A stretch of 64,000 nucleotides of DNA from Anaerolineales bacterium (lineage in GTDB: Bacteria; Chloroflexota; Anaerolineae; Anaerolineales; UBA4823): assembly GCA_020061105.1 (NCBI GenBank), contig JAGUYW010000034.1, forward strand, positions 1,173 to 65,172, in the 5' to 3' direction. A program made the position numbers and the translations under genes. Below the pieces are notes generated by a model that did no database searches, was not told where the DNA came from, and saw nothing but the letters and a program-made list of their open reading frames with translations. This document shows, in pieces, positions 4,275 to 48,909 of this stretch. How positions within the stretch are numbered: the stretch's first letter is position 1; each line of letters begins with the position of its first letter.

Positions 4275-4880
4275 TTAGGCGGAATTTTGCAAAACTTCTT
4301 TCAAAATCGGGCGCGCCGCCAGCACAGCCCGGGCGCGATGACTGAGGCGGTTTTTTTCCTCCATCTGCAATTCAGCCATCGTTTTGCCCAGCTCTGGCAG
4401 CCAGAAGATGGGGTCGTAGCCAAAGCCATTGGCGCCGCGTTCCTGGGGGATGATCTGCCCTTCGCACCGCCCTTCACAAAAGCGCATCTCGCCCTTGGGT
4501 AAGGCCAGCGCGATCACGCAGCGAAAGCGGGCCGTCCAGGGCTGCGGCACACCTGTCAGGTGTTCCAGCAAATAGGCGCGCCGGTCGGCGTCGCTGGCGC
4601 CCGGCAAGGGCGAGAAGCGCGCCGAATGCAGCCCGGGCTGGCCGTCCAGGGCGTCCACTTCCAGGCCGGAATCGTCCGCCAGGGTCAGCAGCCCGCTGGC
4701 CTGGGCAAAGGCCTGGGCTTTCAAGGCGGCGTTTTCGGCGTAGGTTTGGCCGTGTTCTTCCACCTCCATCTCCAGCCCAACCTGCTGGGGCGTGACCAGT
4801 TCCAGGTCGAAATCGCCCAGCAAGGCCTGGATCTCCTTCAATTTGCCGCGATTGTTGGTAGCTAATAATAATTTCATCAC
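4275..4880 (-). CDS. rdgB: non-canonical purine NTP (dITP/XTP) pyrophosphatase, RdgB/Ham1 family
   Basis: 201 aa. Shows KLLLATNNRGKLKEI at the N-terminus, the FGYDPIF motif and RLSHRARA near the C-terminus. The start is GTG 4880 or ATG 4877. Confidence 0.9.
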   Translation of the reverse strand: MMKLLLATNNRGKLKEIQALLGDFDLELVTPQQVGLEMEVEEHGQTYAENAALKAQAFAQASGLLTLADDSGLEVDALDGQPGLHSARFSPLPGASDADRRAYLLEHLTGVPQPWTARFRCVIALALPKGEMRFCEGRCEGQIIPQERGANGFGYDPIFWLPELGKTMAELQMEEKNRLSHRARAVLAARPILKEVLQNSA

Positions 4881-4902
4881 CGGCGCGCCTCGTGAAAACT
4901 GA

Positions 4903-4911
4903 TGTTATAAT
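4903..4911 (+). promoter_or_regulatory. candidate extended -10 promoter (TGtTATAAT) for the yceD-like gene
   Basis: TG at 4903-4904 and TATAAT at 4906-4911, about 70 nt upstream of the 4983 start. There is no good -35. Confidence 0.35.
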
Positions 4912-4982
4912 GATGCCACATTTTCTCACCAAATCAAGGTTTTGGCTCTGCCAATTTTCAGGCCCGCTTATCGCGGCGCAGT

Positions 4983-5522
4983 TTGGATTTTATCGTGTAC
5001 AGCCCCCGTAATCTTCTGATCCTCAATGTTGGTTTCATCGTCCACCAGACGGTCGGATACCTGCGCGACTTTCCGATCGAGGCGCCTTTTCTGCGCCTGC
5101 CTCCCGATCTCGAATTGCACAATTTCGCCGGCAACGTGCGCGTCACCCGCACCGCCCAGGGGCTGCTGCTGCAGGCAAACTTGAACGCTTCGATCCAGAT
5201 GCCCTGCGTACGCTGCCTGGCGGAAGTCTCCCAGATGCTGCAGGCCGAATTCACCGACCTGTACGCTTTCAATCGCAATTCGATGACCCAGGCAGGCTTG
5301 CTGCTGCCTGACACCGGCAAAATCGACCTGAGCGAGACGGTGCGCGAGGAGATGCTGCTGGCAACGCCGATCAACGCCCTGTGCTCCCATGATTGCAAGG
5401 GGTTGTGCCCGGTGTGCGGCGAGAACCTGAACACCACCAGCTGCTCTCACGAAAATGAGGAGCCGGATCCGCGTTTGGATGTGCTGCGCTCGCTGCTTGA
5501 TGACGACCAGCCGGCAACTTGA
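4983..5522 (+). CDS. YceD/DUF177 family protein
   Basis: 179 aa with a TTG start. The characteristic C-terminal Cys cluster is CSHDCKGLCPVCGENLN, followed by DPRLDVL. No rpmF-like ORF follows it. Confidence 0.8.
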   Translation: MDFIVYSPRNLLILNVGFIVHQTVGYLRDFPIEAPFLRLPPDLELHNFAGNVRVTRTAQGLLLQANLNASIQMPCVRCLAEVSQMLQAEFTDLYAFNRNSMTQAGLLLPDTGKIDLSETVREEMLLATPINALCSHDCKGLCPVCGENLNTTSCSHENEEPDPRLDVLRSLLDDDQPAT

Positions 5523-5533
5523 AAATTACTGGC

Positions 5534-5562
5534 TTGACAAATGACTGCAGCAGATATACAAT
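5534..5562 (+). promoter_or_regulatory. sigma70-type promoter TTGACA-N17-TACAAT (metG leader)
   Basis: TTGACA at 5534-5539, a 17-nt spacer, and TACAAT at 5557-5562. Confidence 0.55.
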
Positions 5563-5639
5563 CGCTGCATCTTTGGCCTTTGACGAACCATTTGAACACA
5601 CAAACGGCGACGCGCCGGCGTCGCGCAGGAGATTGGATT

Positions 5640-5753
5640 GTGACTGCTCGGATCCTGGCAATCAAAACGATTTACTCGATGGCGATGATGTGCACCATGC
5701 GCATGATGTTGCGCGCCAGCGACCGGGCAGCCAGTCTCGCCAGGGAGGCTTGA
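5640..5753 (+). promoter_or_regulatory. candidate Met-rich leader ORF (37 codons) in the metG 5' leader
   Basis: SD AGGAG at 5627-5631, GTG at 5640, stop TGA at 5751-5753. The peptide is (M)TARILAIKTIYSMAMMCTMRMMLRASDRAASLAREA, with six ATG codons within 5679-5708. GGGCAGCC at 5725-5732 duplicates the 3' arm of the downstream terminator. Confidence 0.45.
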
Positions 5754-5777
5754 TCTCCCAGACGATCAGGATCAGCA

Positions 5778-5809
5778 GGCTGTCCAGGTATGGGCAGCCT
5801 TTTTATTTT
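5778..5809 (+). terminator. intrinsic terminator / attenuator immediately upstream of metG
   Basis: An 8-bp stem GGCTGTCC (5778-5785) / GGGCAGCC (5792-5799), loop AGGTAT, then TTTTTATTTT (5800-5809). The metG SD GAGGTG lies at 5816-5821. Confidence 0.7.
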
Positions 5810-5825
5810 GCAAATGAGGTGTGAG

Positions 5826-7613
5826 ATGTCGAAAAATATACTCGTCGCAGTAGCCTGGCCCTATGCCAACTCGCAAATTCACGTCGGCAATATCACCGGC
5901 TCTTACCTGCCGGCAGATATCTTCGCCCGCTACCACCGCCTGGCAGGCGATCATGTGGCGATGGTTTCCGGCTCCGACGCCCACGGCACGCCGGTGACCG
6001 TGCGCGCCGACGCCGAGGGCACATCTCCGGTACAGGTCTACCAAAAATACCACCACGGTTTTCTGGAGCTTTTCCAGAAACTCGGGTTGACCTACGACCT
6101 CTTCACCAGCACACACACCGAAAATCACTTTCGCGTCTCTCAAGACATCTTCCGGGCTATCAAAGAGAATGGCTTTCTGTACACCGAACGCCAGTTGCAA
6201 TGGTTTGCGCCTTCGATCGGGCGATTCTTGCCCGACCGCTATGTGGAAGGCACCTGCTACCTGTGCGGCTATCCCAACGCCCGCGGCGACCAGTGCGACC
6301 AGTGCGGCAGCCTGCTGGACGCCACCCTGCTGATCGACCCGCACGCCAAGACCGACGGCTCGACCCCCGAACTGCGCGAAACCGAGCATTTCTTCCTCGA
6401 CCTGGGCGCTCTGGAACCGGCGATCACCGATTTCTTGAACCAGCGCGAGCATTACTGGCGCCAGAATGTCCTACGCCAATCGCTCGGCCAGATCGAGGCC
6501 AGCGGCCTGCACGGGCGCGCCATCACCCGCGACCTGGATTGGGGTATTCCCGTCCCGGTGGAAGGCTGGCAGGGAAAATGCCTGTATGTGTGGTTCGAGG
6601 CCGTGATTGGCTATCTCTCCGCCGCCATCGAATACACCCGACTGGAAGGCAAACCCGATGAATGGCAAAATTGGTGGTTCAACCTCGACGCCAAAGCCTT
6701 CTATTTTATTGGCAAGGACAATATCCCCTTCCACGCCGTGATCTGGCCAGCCCAGTTGATCGGGGCGGGCGTGTATTTCGCCAAATTCTTCATTGAGGAA
6801 GACAACAAACGCCTGGTCTTGCCCTATGATGTGCCTGCCAACGAGTTCATGAACATGCAAGGCTCGAAGATCTCTGGCAGCCGTAACTGGGCGGTGTGGG
6901 GACTGGATTTTCTCTCACGCTACGATCCCGATCCGCTGCGCTACTACCTGACGGTCAACATGCCGGAAAGCAAAGACACCGATTGGGATTGGACTGATTT
7001 TGTGCGGCGCAACAACGATGAGCTGGTAGCCACCTGGGGCAACCTGGCCAACCGCATGCTGTCTTTCTCGTACAAGCACTGGGAAGGGTGTGTACCGGAG
7101 CCGGACGAACTGCGCCCCGAAGACGAAGAACTGCTGGGTACGGTCGAGGGCGGCTTCCAGACAGTGGGCGAGCATTTCGAGGCGGTGCGCCTGCGGGCCG
7201 CCCTGGGCGAGGCCATGCGCCTGGCAACCGAGGTCAACCGCTACCTGGACCGCTGCGCCCCGTGGTTCGAAATCAAGAGCGACAAGGCTGCGGCGGCTAA
7301 GACAGTTTACACCGCCTTGCGGGCGATTGACTCGCTCAAGACCCTGTTTGCGCCTATCCTGCCCTTTAGCAGCCAGCGCCTGCACGAATACCTGGGCTAC
7401 AGCCAGCCGCTCTTTGGGGAGCAGTACACCGAAAACGTGACCGACAGCCTGGGCGAGCACACCGTGCTGCGCTACCGCCCGCTGGCATCCCATCCGGGCT
7501 GGTTGCCCAGCCGCCTGCCTGCCGGGCAGCCCTTGCTCAAGCCTGAGCCGCTCTTCCGCAAGCTCGACCCGATCGTGGCAGAACAGGAACTGGCGCGCAT
7601 GGGCGGCAGCTAG
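5826..7613 (+). CDS. metG: methionine--tRNA ligase
   Basis: 595 aa counted from ATG 5826 (SD GAGGTG); the ORF-track start at 5790 is probably too far upstream. Shows WPYANSQIHVGN (HIGH-type), the zinc knuckle CYLCGYPNARGDQCDQCG, and the KMSKS-type SKISGSR. Confidence 0.93.
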   Translation: MSKNILVAVAWPYANSQIHVGNITGSYLPADIFARYHRLAGDHVAMVSGSDAHGTPVTVRADAEGTSPVQVYQKYHHGFLELFQKLGLTYDLFTSTHTENHFRVSQDIFRAIKENGFLYTERQLQWFAPSIGRFLPDRYVEGTCYLCGYPNARGDQCDQCGSLLDATLLIDPHAKTDGSTPELRETEHFFLDLGALEPAITDFLNQREHYWRQNVLRQSLGQIEASGLHGRAITRDLDWGIPVPVEGWQGKCLYVWFEAVIGYLSAAIEYTRLEGKPDEWQNWWFNLDAKAFYFIGKDNIPFHAVIWPAQLIGAGVYFAKFFIEEDNKRLVLPYDVPANEFMNMQGSKISGSRNWAVWGLDFLSRYDPDPLRYYLTVNMPESKDTDWDWTDFVRRNNDELVATWGNLANRMLSFSYKHWEGCVPEPDELRPEDEELLGTVEGGFQTVGEHFEAVRLRAALGEAMRLATEVNRYLDRCAPWFEIKSDKAAAAKTVYTALRAIDSLKTLFAPILPFSSQRLHEYLGYSQPLFGEQYTENVTDSLGEHTVLRYRPLASHPGWLPSRLPAGQPLLKPEPLFRKLDPIVAEQELARMGGS

Positions 7614-7663
7614 AACCAGGCCCAGAGCGCCAACTGGCTGTCCACACATCACTCGGTTGCCTT

Positions 7664-7702
7664 AAAAAAAGGGGCGCGATTTTGCTCGCGCCCCTTGCTT
7701 TT
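7664..7702. terminator. bidirectional intrinsic terminator between the convergent metG and DUF4013 genes
   Basis: AAAAAAA, then GGGGCGCG (7671-7678), an 8-nt loop, CGCGCCCC (7687-7694), then TTGCTTTT. Confidence 0.7.
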
Positions 7703-7758
7703 ATCCGTCTTCGTCAGGGCGATGACTCGTACCGTTCAGATGCGGTCAGGCAGCGATC

Positions 7759-8424
7759 TTAGTAGGCGCTGGCCTGCTGAACCCGCCCACCCGCCTCGCG
7801 GTAGGCCTGGCCCCACAGGTGAGCCATGGCTGCGTTGGCGAAAGGAATGGTGACCAATACACCAATCACGCAGGCAATGACGCCCAAACCGCCGATGATG
7901 CTGGCAACAAAGCCACCCAGCAAGACCATGATGTACGCCATCGGGACAGCCCGCACCATGCTGATGACTTCCCCAAAGCGGAAGGCGGCTTTCAGTTCGC
8001 CCGTGGCGGCAAATTTACCAAAGGCAGCCGGCATCACCAGGCCAGCCAACAGGGAATAGAGAAACACCAGGCAGCCAAAGCACACGCTGACAAGCATGGC
8101 AATCGTCATGACGATGTCTTCGCCGGTTTCCTGCCCCAGAATGGTTAAGCCCTGGGTACAGGCAGACACCAGGATGACCGGCAGCAAATAAACCAGCGAG
8201 ATCACGACCACTTTCAGGCCTTTGACCAGCAAGCCCATGAAATCTTCCCACTGCGGCATGGGGTAAGCCTCGCCTTGAATCACGCGGCGCGTAATTTCAA
8301 TTGCCCAACCCATGACAAAAAGGCCGCCCACGATCGGAATGATCATCATCACTGCCGCAATGCCGAGTTTCTTCATCCAATCAGGGTCGTCAAACGGGTA
8401 AGTAAATGCTTTGCCTAGATTCAT
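7759..8424 (-). CDS. polytopic membrane protein, DUF4013-like
   Basis: 221 aa. The N-terminus KAFTYPFDDPDWMKKLGIAAVMMIIPIVG is followed by about 5 further hydrophobic helices. SD AAAGGAG lies upstream. The family call is from memory of the N-terminal motif. Confidence 0.6.
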   Translation of the reverse strand: MNLGKAFTYPFDDPDWMKKLGIAAVMMIIPIVGGLFVMGWAIEITRRVIQGEAYPMPQWEDFMGLLVKGLKVVVISLVYLLPVILVSACTQGLTILGQETGEDIVMTIAMLVSVCFGCLVFLYSLLAGLVMPAAFGKFAATGELKAAFRFGEVISMVRAVPMAYIMVLLGGFVASIIGGLGVIACVIGVLVTIPFANAAMAHLWGQAYREAGGRVQQASAY

Positions 8425-8600: not shown

Positions 8601-9899
8601 TTACTGCCCCTGCAAGGTCGTCGACCCATTGACAGCCTGGATGGCTTTTAGCTGCGCCTGGCGGGCCAGGTCGATGGCTTTGGAAAGGGCGCGCAGCGCT
8701 TCGCTGGGGTTGTGAAAGCCCATGCTGTTTTCGGCGGCGATGAAGTCCCAGTACATCTGGGCGTCGCGGTGCAGCTGGCGGGCTTCGTTGAGCAATTCGG
8801 CGTTCACGTTGGGCGAGGCGGCGGCAATCTTCATGGCGTCGATGGCGTCGATCAGGGCATCCTGGGCGGCATCCATGGTCTCGCGCACCTGCTGCTGAAT
8901 AATGGCAACCCGCCCGGTGGCGAATGCCACATCGGTATGGCATTGTCCACAGGCTGCCTGGGCGTTGAGGAGCGGGCTTTGAACGTTATGGGTCGAGAAT
9001 TTGGCGGCCCCATCGCGGGTATAGGGCATATGGCAATCGGCGCACGCCACGCCAGCGTTATAGTGGGTGCTGTTTTGCGTGTAAAGTTCATACTCCGGAT
9101 GTTGGGCTTTGAGCATGGGTGTTTCTGTTTCGGGGTAGGTCCAATCCTTGAAACCTATTTCGTTGTAATATGCAATGATTTGATCGATATTTGTACCTTT
9201 GTCCCACGGGAAAGTCAGGTACTTGCCTTCGCCTGCGAAATAATATTCCACATGGCAGTTGGCGCACACGACGGTGCGCATTTCCTGGCGGGTGAAGGTG
9301 CGCCAATCTTTGCCCTGTTCTTTCAGAGCTTCTTCCAGGGCTGGGTTGGTGACGATCAATTTCATCGTTCCAGCTTCGTGGCAGTTGGCGCAGCCAATCG
9401 GCTGTTCAATCTGCTCACCCAATTCGTAAAACTTAGTCTTATAAAAATCAGTCGGCCCCATTTTATCCCACAGGCTGGGGTTATTGGCCGATTTGCAGGA
9501 ATAGCACGTCCCTGGAGTGGTTTCGTCAACACGATCAATCTCACGCACATCCTGCAGGCTGTGCATGTGGCCGCGGTCTTCATTATACTCTTTGCTAAAC
9601 GCCATGCCGGCAAACAAGACTACCAGGCGCGGGTCGTCTTCCAGCTTGGAGAAGGGAACCGAGCCGCCAAAGACGGTGCGGTTGTTGTTCGTGGCGGTCA
9701 TTTGAAAAGTGGACCACTGGTTCGGGAAATTGATGCCCCATTGTTCCGAATTGGGTTCCATCGGGGCAATCTCCACCAGCGGTTGGATGCCGCGGTCTGC
9801 GATCGGTTGGTTCTTCATAAAAATCAGCACGCTAATCAGGCTTGCTGCCAGGATTACAATAATCCCAGTCAAGATTAAGGAAGATGTTGAGATTTTCAC
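8601..9899 (-). CDS. nrfA: pentaheme cytochrome c nitrite reductase (ammonia-forming), NrfA
   Basis: 432 aa with an N-terminal signal anchor. One CXXCK site (CYSCK) plus four CXXCH sites (CANCH, CANCH, CADCH, CGQCH) in the NrfA order, including CANCHVEYYF. Confidence 0.92.
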   Translation of the reverse strand: MKISTSSLILTGIIVILAASLISVLIFMKNQPIADRGIQPLVEIAPMEPNSEQWGINFPNQWSTFQMTATNNNRTVFGGSVPFSKLEDDPRLVVLFAGMAFSKEYNEDRGHMHSLQDVREIDRVDETTPGTCYSCKSANNPSLWDKMGPTDFYKTKFYELGEQIEQPIGCANCHEAGTMKLIVTNPALEEALKEQGKDWRTFTRQEMRTVVCANCHVEYYFAGEGKYLTFPWDKGTNIDQIIAYYNEIGFKDWTYPETETPMLKAQHPEYELYTQNSTHYNAGVACADCHMPYTRDGAAKFSTHNVQSPLLNAQAACGQCHTDVAFATGRVAIIQQQVRETMDAAQDALIDAIDAMKIAAASPNVNAELLNEARQLHRDAQMYWDFIAAENSMGFHNPSEALRALSKAIDLARQAQLKAIQAVNGSTTLQGQ

Positions 9900-47462: not shown

Positions 47463-47596
47463 CTCTTATCCAGAGAGGCGGAGGGACCGGCCCGATGAAG
47501 CCTCGGCAACCTCAAAAGCCTGCCACAGCAAGAACCGGCTAGTGCGGCTTTAGAACGGTGCCAATTCCGGCAGACGGATGTTCTGGTAGATGAGAG
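47463..47596 (+). promoter_or_regulatory. SAM-I (S-box) riboswitch aptamer
   Basis: CTCTTATCCAGAGAGGCGGAGGGACCGGCCCGATGAAGCCTCGGCAACC...GGTGCCAATTCCGGCAGACGG...GATGAGAG. The P1 arms are CTCTTATC / GATGAGAG. It matches the S-box core consensus, with a long P3 insertion. Confidence 0.9.
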
Positions 47597-47676: not shown

Positions 47677-48909
47677 TTGAGTACAACTTTTATGAATTCC
47701 CCCAGCCTGATGTTCACTTCTGAATCAGTGACCGAAGGCCATCCCGATAAATTGTGCGACCAGATCAGCGACGCCGTGTTGGACGCCTGTCTCGAACAGG
47801 ACCCCGCCTCGCGAGTAGCCTGCGAAGCAGCCGCCAAGACGGGCTTTGTGTTGGTGCTGGGAGAAATCACCACCAAGGCGCAAATCAACTTCGATGACCT
47901 GGTGCGAGATACGCTGGTACGCACCGGCTACGACTCGAGCGAAAAAGGCATGGACGGCAGCACCTGCGGGGTGTTGGTAGCGCTGGCAAAACAGTCTGGC
48001 GATATTGCTATGGGCGTTAACAAAGCCCTGGAAGCCAAAAATGGCAATATGACCGAGGCGGAAGTCGAGGCGATTGGCGCCGGAGACCAGGGCATGATGT
48101 TCGGTTTCGCCTGCGATGAAACCCCCACCCTGATGCCGATGCCGATCTATCTGGCTCATAAGCTGGCCCGGCGTTTGAGCGAAGTGCGCAAAGACGGAAC
48201 CTTGCCGTGGTTGCGCCCAGACGGTAAGACCCAGGTCACGGTTGAATACCGCTTTGGAAGACCTCACCGGGTCGACACAGTTCTGATCAGCACCCAGCAC
48301 GCCCCAGAGATCGGCCAGGAGCACATTCGCGAGGCCTTGATCGAGCATGTGATCAACCCGATCTTGCCAGCTGAGATGGTGGATGACAAGATCAAAATCT
48401 ACACCAACCCCACCGGGCGTTTTGTAATCGGCGGCCCACAGGGCGACGCCGGCCTGACCGGGCGCAAGATCATCGTCGATACCTACGGCGGCATGGGCCG
48501 GCATGGCGGAGGCGCTTTTAGCGGTAAAGACCCGACAAAAGTAGACCGCTCCGCTGCCTACGCCGCTCGCTGGGCTGCCAAGAATGTTGTCGCGGCTGGT
48601 CTGGCGCGGCGCTGTGAAATCCAGGTTGCTTACGCCATCGGCGTGGCGCGCCCGTTGAGCGTCAATGTCGAGACTTTCGGCACCGGCGAAATCCCCGACG
48701 AGGAAATTGCCCAGCTGGTGCAGGAGACTTTCGATCTGCGACCGGGCGCCATTATCCGCGACCTCGACCTGCGCCGCCCGATCTACCGCCAGATTGCTGC
48801 CTACGGCCACTTCGGGCGGGACGATCTAGACCTGCCTTGGGAGCGCACCAACAAAGCCGACCTGCTGCGGCGCAAAGCGGGCCTTTCTCAACCCGTTGCT
48901 GCTGACTGA
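47677..48909 (+). CDS. metK: S-adenosylmethionine synthetase
   Basis: 410 aa with a TTG start. Shows [44 protein letters not shown]. Confidence 0.95.

Follow-up and report, generated by a model that had tools for sequence, protein, structure and literature searches.

A methionine-codon-rich leader upstream of metG in Anaerolineales as a candidate ribosome-mediated transcription attenuator

In an Anaerolineales bacterium of the phylum Chloroflexota (GenBank assembly GCA_020061105.1), metG, the gene for methionyl-tRNA synthetase (MetRS), is preceded by a short open reading frame (ORF) crowded with Met codons and by a terminator-like hairpin. The question raised by this locus is whether the leader controls metG and, if so, which signal it reads. 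We examined it in a stretch of 64,000 nucleotides (nt) of contig JAGUYW010000034.1 (positions 1,173 to 65,172), hereafter the window, whose numbering is used for the locus below. We propose, with a probability of roughly 0.78, that the leader is a ribosome-mediated transcription attenuator that would sense the supply of charged elongator Met-tRNA. The locus contains the features by which attenuators are recognized, namely: a promoter-proximal ORF; codons cognate to the regulated synthetase; a terminator with no promoter behind it; an antiterminator that excludes this terminator; and spacings compatible with the footprint of a ribosome.

The leader lies behind a sigma-70-type promoter on the forward strand (5534-5562), which consists of a -35 box TTGACA (5534-5539), a 17-nt spacer and a -10 box TACAAT (5557-5562). 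In a consensus scan this site scores 11/12 and is the top promoter-like site within 4800-8000, which bears out the near-consensus promoter described in an earlier note on this DNA. Its position would place the transcription start near 5569, ~7 nt past the -10 box. A Shine-Dalgarno (SD) sequence, AGGAG (5627-5631, forward strand), stands 8 nt ahead of a GTG codon at 5640; this codon opens a forward-strand ORF of 37 codons (5640-5753) that closes with TGA at 5751-5753 and encodes the peptide V/M-TARILAIKTIYSMAMMCTMRMMLRASDRAASLAREA-stop. The putative regulatory codons are clustered at 5679-5708 (forward strand), where 6 of the 10 codons are ATG (5679, 5685, 5688, 5697, 5703 and 5706). This is the sole site in the six frames of the window with at least 5 ATG per 10 stop-free codons. 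Thus, the leader ORF stands as first described, and its Met run is indeed far above chance. metG itself (5816-7613, forward strand) has the SD sequence GAGGTG at 5816-5821, an ATG at 5826 and a stop codon at 7611-7613, and its product is a class-I MetRS (Pfam tRNA-synt_1g, E=5e-135, plus Anticodon_3).

Downstream of the Met codons are three segments, arms 2, 3 and 4, that are predicted to form two mutually exclusive helices, 2:3 and 3:4. Arm 2, the 5′ strand of the antiterminator, is GGGCAGCC at 5725-5732 (forward strand), inside the leader ORF. Arm 3, common to the antiterminator and the terminator, is AGGCTGTCCA at 5777-5786 (forward strand), with the core GGCTGTCC at 5778-5785. Arm 4 and the T-tract behind it occupy 5791-5809 (forward strand), with TGGGCAGCCT at 5791-5800 (core GGGCAGCC, 5792-5799) and the T-tract TTTTTATTTT at 5800-5809. 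Arm 2 is therefore an exact copy of the core of arm 4 and is complementary to arm 3. The terminator is found at the place given in the earlier note, but the stem of 8 base pairs (bp) claimed there is actually one of 10 bp (5777-5786 with 5791-5800) closed by a 4-nt loop, with a predicted energy of -18.1 kcal/mol. The T-tract lies 17 nt before the metG start, and a consensus scan of 5800-5826, from the terminator to the metG ATG, returns no promoter-like site.

The 8-mer GGGCAGCC occurs 11 times in the window against 5.4 copies expected, and the chance of one falling inside the ORF is ~1-2%. Since the 8-mer alone is not rare, its duplication in the leader needed comparative support. A MetRS protein query yielded 80 loci from species-representative genomes, the nearest being Anaerolineales/Chloroflexota metagenome-assembled genomes with up to 78% identity. 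The leader unit is found upstream of metG in 34 Anaerolineales genome loci (MetRS 64-78% identical), in one further locus (L031) and in 10 metagenome contigs, ~45 sequences in all. Measurements on leaders are based on an alignment of 34 of them (A1). The copied arm is convincing because it is conserved in 34/34 homologous leaders, which upholds the claim that the 3′ strand of the terminator is repeated at 5725-5732.

The rest of the leader anatomy is conserved as well, so that the comparison with homologues suggested in the earlier note gives a consistent answer: the Met-codon run, the ORF, the terminator and the copied arm are all retained upstream of metG. The promoter is found as TTGACA-N17-TAGACT in 31/34 leaders of A1, with TAGACT, TAAACT and TACACT as -10 variants. 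A purine-rich SD sequence and an aligned ATG, GTG or TTG are present in 31/34, and the frame is open from the start to the stop codon in 29/31 (median 37 codons). The hairpin GGCTGTCC-loop-GG[A/G]CAGC with a T-run is upstream of metG in 33 genome loci of A1, and the metG start follows the T-tract by ~17-50 nt in most leaders. In the window, the last Met codon is 16 nt from arm 2, arm 2 is 18 nt from the stop codon, and the stop codon is 24 nt from arm 3. In homologues, the corresponding distances are 13-31 nt (at least 13 in most), mostly 21 nt, and 22-25 nt in most.

In-frame, stop-free Met runs (4-7 ATG per 10 codons) are found upstream of metG in ~25 loci, mostly 150-190 nt from the gene and, in three of them (L002, L004 and L031), 230-310 nt from it. 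Throughout 575 kb of retrieved DNA, all but two clusters of at least 5 ATG fall in metG leaders. Leaders of A1 have a median of 5 internal Met codons (range 2 to 9), and Met makes up 15.4% of leader residues vs. 2.6% in the proteins of the window, a 5.9-fold enrichment; the next most enriched residue reaches 1.6-fold. Contigs of close strains (X1-X3), ~98.5% identical to the window, differ from it by two changes in the leader ORF, with the arms unchanged: one at 5664 (Lys to Glu) and one at 5705 (ATG to ATC, Met to Ile), the latter leaving five of the six Met codons. One additional T is found in their T-tract. These variants, small in number, fit a peptide without sequence constraint.

A metagenome scan for the hairpin and T-run served as a control. 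It returned 120 contigs with ~150 hairpins, mostly ordinary terminators in unrelated organisms. A MetRS gene lies 3′ of the hairpin in 10 cases, and a Met run (3-7) precedes the hairpin in 10/10 of these; one additional case is cut off by the contig end. MetRS follows 0 of the ~135 other hairpins. A regulon beyond metG was considered and rejected, since by eye the only other Met runs of at least 4 in the metagenome scan are the C-termini of DnaN- and GroEL-like proteins. A second GGCTGTCC hairpin in one homologous locus (L003) was likewise set aside as an ordinary terminator after an aldehyde:ferredoxin oxidoreductase-like gene.

Other layouts of the leader were also identified. In a metagenome subgroup (L088, L096, L153, L168, L193, L198 and L189), the leader ATG comes only 7 nt after a -10 box TAAAAT, which gives these ORFs a leaderless look. 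They end 4 nt past arm 2 (…TGGATAGCACGTTAG), so that a ribosome in the act of terminating would lie over arm 2, as it does in the classical trp design. Another metG leader layout is seen in L014 (2760-2915), L017 (2794-2950) and L027 (2768-2930), where an ORF of 20-25 codons ends in ...SSLG[I/T]MMMR..PA followed by a stop codon. In this case, a -10 box TGGTAAAAT lies ~7 nt before the ORF, the terminator is a different one (ACAGGTCGGCC...GGCCGGCCTGT), the MMM codons are in the 5′ strand of a long hairpin, and no antiterminator is identifiable from minimum free energy (MFE) folds. Two of these loci also contain, between the terminator and the metG SD sequence, a tandem 9-nt repeat TGACTACCC of ~7 copies with 92% matches (L027 2929-2989; also L014 ~2915-2990). 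Met enrichment is kept in all three leader layouts, which differ in sequence.

These data bear on the question of what stalls the ribosome. The leader could sense general translation capacity or any kind of stalling, as caused by antibiotics or global starvation, in the manner of erm/cat-type leaders or coupling-dependent terminators. An arrangement of ORF, terminator and antiterminator would answer any stall upstream of arm 2, and the number of Met codons (2 to 9) and their exact positions do vary. We nevertheless consider a general sensor improbable: Met is the sole strongly enriched residue, its enrichment persists across the three divergent layouts, and the regulated gene is always the Met-specific synthetase.

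The nature of the leader peptide was considered next to that of its codons. No Pfam family is assigned to the window ORF, and in public annotations its homologues are unnamed or merely called ‘hypothetical protein’. In the peptide alignment, the only conserved positions are the Met residues and two residues encoded by arm 2, while the character of the N-terminal half depends on the subgroup, being hydrophobic in some and hydrophilic in others, to which the window belongs. At the nucleotide level, arm 2 (GG[A/G]CAGC) is nearly invariant in 34/34 leaders. It reads xGG-[A/G]CA-GCx in the ORF frame; the G and A at third positions never change, whereas the amino acids that they help to encode do (R/W/L/Q/G/E, then A/T). 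Conservation of third positions alongside variable residues is a sign that the RNA, and not the protein, is under selection.

This pattern weighs heavily on the proposal that the ORF is the gene of a genuine small protein rich in Met, often hydrophobic and perhaps membrane- or metal-binding, with the hairpin as its own terminator and a merely positional link to metG. Such a protein would account for the hydrophobic N-terminal half in many homologues, for a tail ...SPxxILAAVRxKKDR that is similar within subgroups, and for the label given to the ORF by gene callers; MxMxM motifs do occur in Cu(I)-binding proteins. Across subgroups, however, nothing but Met and the two arm-2-encoded residues is kept, the peptides of the window and of three homologues (L001, L002 and L040) are not hydrophobic, and arm 2 is constrained at third codon positions where amino acids vary. 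In addition, the ORF is found only upstream of metG and belongs to no Pfam family, and metG begins shortly after the T-tract in most leaders, with no promoter of its own past the terminator. A small-protein gene is thus very unlikely.

Evidence for the alternative helices comes from folding and from sequence comparison. Folds of the arm 2-arm 3 segment were computed with arm 4 left out, to mimic the state during transcription. The 2:3 helix (8-10 bp) is part of the MFE fold in 34/34 leaders and in 11/11 further sequences. For the window, the 2:3 state before arm 4 exists has a predicted energy of -29.2 kcal/mol. For the full segment, the fold with the terminator reaches -37.0 kcal/mol vs. -31.4 kcal/mol with 2:3 forced, giving the terminator state an advantage of 5.6 kcal/mol at equilibrium. 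These modelled energies would be consistent with the kinetic switch expected of an attenuator.

In 33/34 leaders, arm 3 has the identical sequence GCTGTCC. With two partners to match, it has little freedom to vary, which restricts covariation to the flanks. Here, the two nucleotides just ahead of arm 2 covary with the initial two of the terminator loop (UA16/CG3/GC2/AU1 and CG12/AU5/UG2/GC1). Duplexes of arms 2 and 3 from the same leader are at -17.0 kcal/mol (cis) vs. -15.4 kcal/mol for those from different leaders (trans), and 0/10,000 permutations, in which kinship is ignored, are as low. Two leaders contain concerted changes of all three arms: in L008, arm 3 has a T to C change with G opposite in both partners; in L031, arm 3 is one base shorter and both partners read GGCAGC. 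The 3:4 helix is paired in 91% of the cells of the alignment, with three pairs changed on both sides; the hairpin is conserved in homologues while its loop varies in sequence and length. The antiterminator pairing proposed in the earlier note is thus supported both by the predicted folds and by the covarying flanks. RNAalifold returns the terminator as the sole consensus structure and no conserved structure over the Met run, so that base pairing does not explain the cluster of ATG codons.

To compare the leader with known RNA families, 5000-6200 was searched with cmscan against Rfam 15 (4227 families) at E<=10. The search gives chance-level matches only, with no T-box (RF00230), S-adenosylmethionine (SAM) riboswitch or amino-acid leader family, in agreement with the earlier reading that T-box and S-box elements are absent. 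Similarly, no T-box was found upstream of metG in 20 related loci; the single T-box match (L077) is on the other strand, elsewhere in the locus. Across the window, a single Rfam family reaches its gathering score, the SAM-I riboswitch (RF00162, 86.6 bits), located at 47463-47596 on the forward strand, ~80 nt upstream of metK (47677-48909, forward strand; S-adenosylmethionine synthetase by Pfam). Sensing of SAM at metK and of Met-tRNA at metG thus appear to coexist in this genome.

Aminoacyl-tRNA synthetase (aaRS) genes elsewhere are under T-boxes or operator mimicry, e.g. thrS of E. coli (PMC2965389). That precedent, together with a hairpin so invariant that it could reflect a binding site, speaks for direct sensing of a ligand, tRNA or MetRS by the leader RNA with an incidental ORF, an idea we find hardly credible given that Rfam returns no match, that nothing besides the terminator is conserved as structure, that the loop varies and shows no conserved CAU as an anticodon mimic would (for which reason a MetRS-binding tRNA mimic was rejected), and that the conserved SD sequence, start codon, open frame and fixed stop-codon spacing would be left unexplained.

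Taken together, the search for known families and the comparison with homologues, the two computational tests named in the earlier note that could speak against a ribosome-mediated attenuator, are both favourable to it. In the mechanism that we propose, transcription would begin at the promoter at 5534-5562 and a ribosome would load on the leader ORF, initiating at GTG 5640, as the SD sequence, the start codon and the conservation of the ORF suggest. Ribosome footprints are taken here at their generally known sizes. With ample Met-tRNA, the ribosome would pass the six Met codons, cover arm 2 while decoding ~5712-5745 and stop on UGA 5751. The earlier note had smooth translation covering the arm; this holds for the decoding of ~5712-5745 but not for the ribosome on the stop codon, which would sit just 3′ of arm 2. 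There, its footprint (~5733-5766) would lie between arms 2 and 3 and melt a small predicted hairpin, CUUGAUC/GAUCAGG (5748-5769, forward strand), whose 5′ strand includes the stop codon UGA (5751-5753). This would leave arm 3 available to arm 4, with termination by the polymerase at 5800-5809. The small hairpin, which lies between arms 2 and 3, may hold them close until the ribosome arrives at the stop codon. By eye, similar UGAUU...AAUCA hairpins are seen around the stop codon in four homologous leaders (L012, L018, L019 and L052).

With scarce Met-tRNA, owing to low methionine or low MetRS activity, the ribosome would stall within 5679-5708, its A site occupied by a Met codon. If it stalled as late as the final one (5706-5708), its leading edge would still be at ~5718-5721, short of arm 2. 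Arm 2 would thus capture arm 3 as it emerges, pre-empting the terminator, and metG would be transcribed. Since MetRS makes Met-tRNA, this would close a homeostatic loop. In the case of an untranslated leader, the outcome would depend on a further segment, region 1 (5637-5659, forward strand), which spans the leader start codon and, without a ribosome, is predicted to form a strong helix with 5716-5735, including arm 2. This 1:2 helix is specific to the window, where it would favour termination; as it is not conserved, the untranslated default in most homologues would presumably be read-through. Read-through as the default would make sense for metG, since initiation also depends on its product.

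Several points weigh against this interpretation. Among public sequencing runs, no RNA run turned up that covers a useful part of the window, of L031 or of the homologous locus L006. We infer termination, read-through and the response to methionine from the sequences, and the same holds for translation of the leader, stalling at its Met codons and the efficiency of the terminator. Transcription-translation coupling is presumed, for this organism as for Chloroflexota at large. In the main group, the ORF extends 18-21 nt past arm 2, so that a ribosome on the stop codon would not cover the arm, and the blocking of 2:3 pairing thus rests on steric and timing arguments. There is no conserved 1:2 anti-antiterminator or pause hairpin among the homologues, which pair arm 2 with another segment or with none. 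Covariation is modest, being limited to the flanks of an almost invariant arm 3; at the two covarying flank positions, 12-14 of 34 sequences are unpaired in the hand-registered alignment A2, and the permutation tests ignore phylogenetic relatedness. Finally, five relatives (L034, L035, L037, L039 and L050) have no leader, only a short 5′ untranslated region (UTR) after a TATACT-type -10 box, and one leader (L007, 2730-2900) is degenerate, with 2 internal Met codons, an arm 2 that reads GGGCACC and a hairpin 106 nt before metG. The distribution of the leader within Anaerolineales is patchy. None of the relatives without it has a T-box upstream of metG.

A wider claim can be made only tentatively, and we regard it as possible rather than probable: that the leaders form an order-wide Anaerolineales family of Met-tRNA-charging sensors with at least two to three layouts, leaderless-looking ORFs among them, whose default is read-through and which would also be on without formylmethionyl-tRNA (fMet-tRNA). 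If true, this would be the first methionine-specific leader-peptide attenuator, and Chloroflexota would be using transcription-translation coupling for gene control. metG would also be switched on when initiation fails for lack of fMet-tRNA, so that the leader would report both MetRS products.

A close precedent is the pheST attenuator of E. coli, an established case of leader-peptide attenuation of an aaRS gene that is also cited as the precedent in PMC1262725. As with pheM of pheST, a short ORF rich in cognate codons precedes the synthetase gene and is followed by an intrinsic terminator with a competing antiterminator, and the synthetase would be induced when its own product, charged tRNA, is scarce. 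Unlike pheST, the metG leader uses Met, whose single codon also serves initiation, rather than Phe; it has no sequence or structure homology to pheST, and its host belongs to Chloroflexota rather than to the gamma-proteobacteria. It also differs in having no conserved 1:2 anti-antiterminator and, in the main group, an ORF that runs 7 codons past arm 2. The logic by which stalling at regulatory codons would select a 2:3 antiterminator over a 3:4 terminator is that of the trp, his, leu, thr and ilv leaders, and the window shares with them a predicted 1:2 helix. Those leaders control biosynthetic operons, whereas the metG leader precedes an aaRS gene, and it gives no covariance-model match to the Trp_leader, His_leader, Leu_leader or Thr_leader families of Rfam. 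We know of no report of Met as the regulatory codon of a leader-peptide attenuator.

Attenuation of aaRS genes outside Proteobacteria has been predicted before, for trpS/leuS in Streptomyces (PMC1262725) and through His-leader ORFs of hisS paralogues in bacilli (PMC2965389). Like those cases, the metG leader is a prediction of comparative genomics; the amino acids and phyla differ, and the sequences are unrelated. The Met T-boxes of metS/metG in Firmicutes act on the same gene, respond to the charging of tRNA-Met and likewise have antitermination of an intrinsic terminator as their output. Uncharged tRNA is bound by a T-box directly and without translation, whereas the metG leader has no specifier loop or T-box sequence and its sensor would be the translating ribosome. 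In mycobacteria, leaderless short polycysteine ORFs act as Cys-responsive attenuators (bioRxiv 10.1101/834739). The metagenome subgroup and the L014 type resemble them in their leaderless-looking, amino-acid-rich ORFs, unlike the window leader with its ~70-nt 5′ UTR and its SD sequence; the amino acid and the target gene also differ. A search of the full texts available found no methionine leader peptide or metG attenuator; an earlier description may exist. Judged from sequence, what is new is the amino-acid specificity, the phylum and the lack of homology to known leaders; the mechanism itself is familiar.

Further features surround the leader in the window. Directly 5′ of the leader SD sequence, a GC-rich hairpin GCGACGC-GCCG-GCGTCGC is predicted in the 5′ UTR (5607-5624, forward strand). 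It is specific to the window, and most homologues, which are without it, have no room for it because their -35 box begins just 54-77 nt before the leader start. The close strain X3 carries C5622G, which would disrupt one pair of this hairpin. Upstream of the promoter, a gene at 4983-5522 (forward strand) encodes a YceD (DUF177) protein by Pfam; in many bacteria, yceD precedes rpmF. In the window, its downstream neighbour is the metG leader, and with no terminator to separate the two, part of the transcription may run on into the leader. Between the end of metG and a convergent DUF4013 gene (7759-8424, reverse strand), an 11-bp hairpin with T-runs on both strands (7669-7696) is probably a bidirectional terminator. 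Beyond it, 8601-9899 (reverse strand) encodes a homologue of cytochrome c552, the NrfA-type nitrite reductase (Pfam, E=5e-133), which suggests that the organism is capable of dissimilatory nitrite ammonification.

The leader is compact (~240 nt) and has a sigma-70-type promoter and an SD sequence, and it is therefore directly testable in E. coli or in a reconstituted coupled system; it might also serve as a reporter of Met-tRNA charging. The leader alignment is a ready seed for a new RNA family. If the attenuator reading holds, it would supply a functional annotation for dozens of short ORFs that are now unnamed or listed as ‘hypothetical protein’. Methionine would join the few amino acids known to be sensed through leader-peptide attenuation, and this form of control would extend to an aaRS gene in Chloroflexota, where cis-regulation is almost unstudied. 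It bears on whether ribosomes in this phylum trail RNA polymerase closely enough for attenuation. Within one genome, it would imply a division of labour in which metK carries a riboswitch for SAM and metG a sensor of Met-tRNA.

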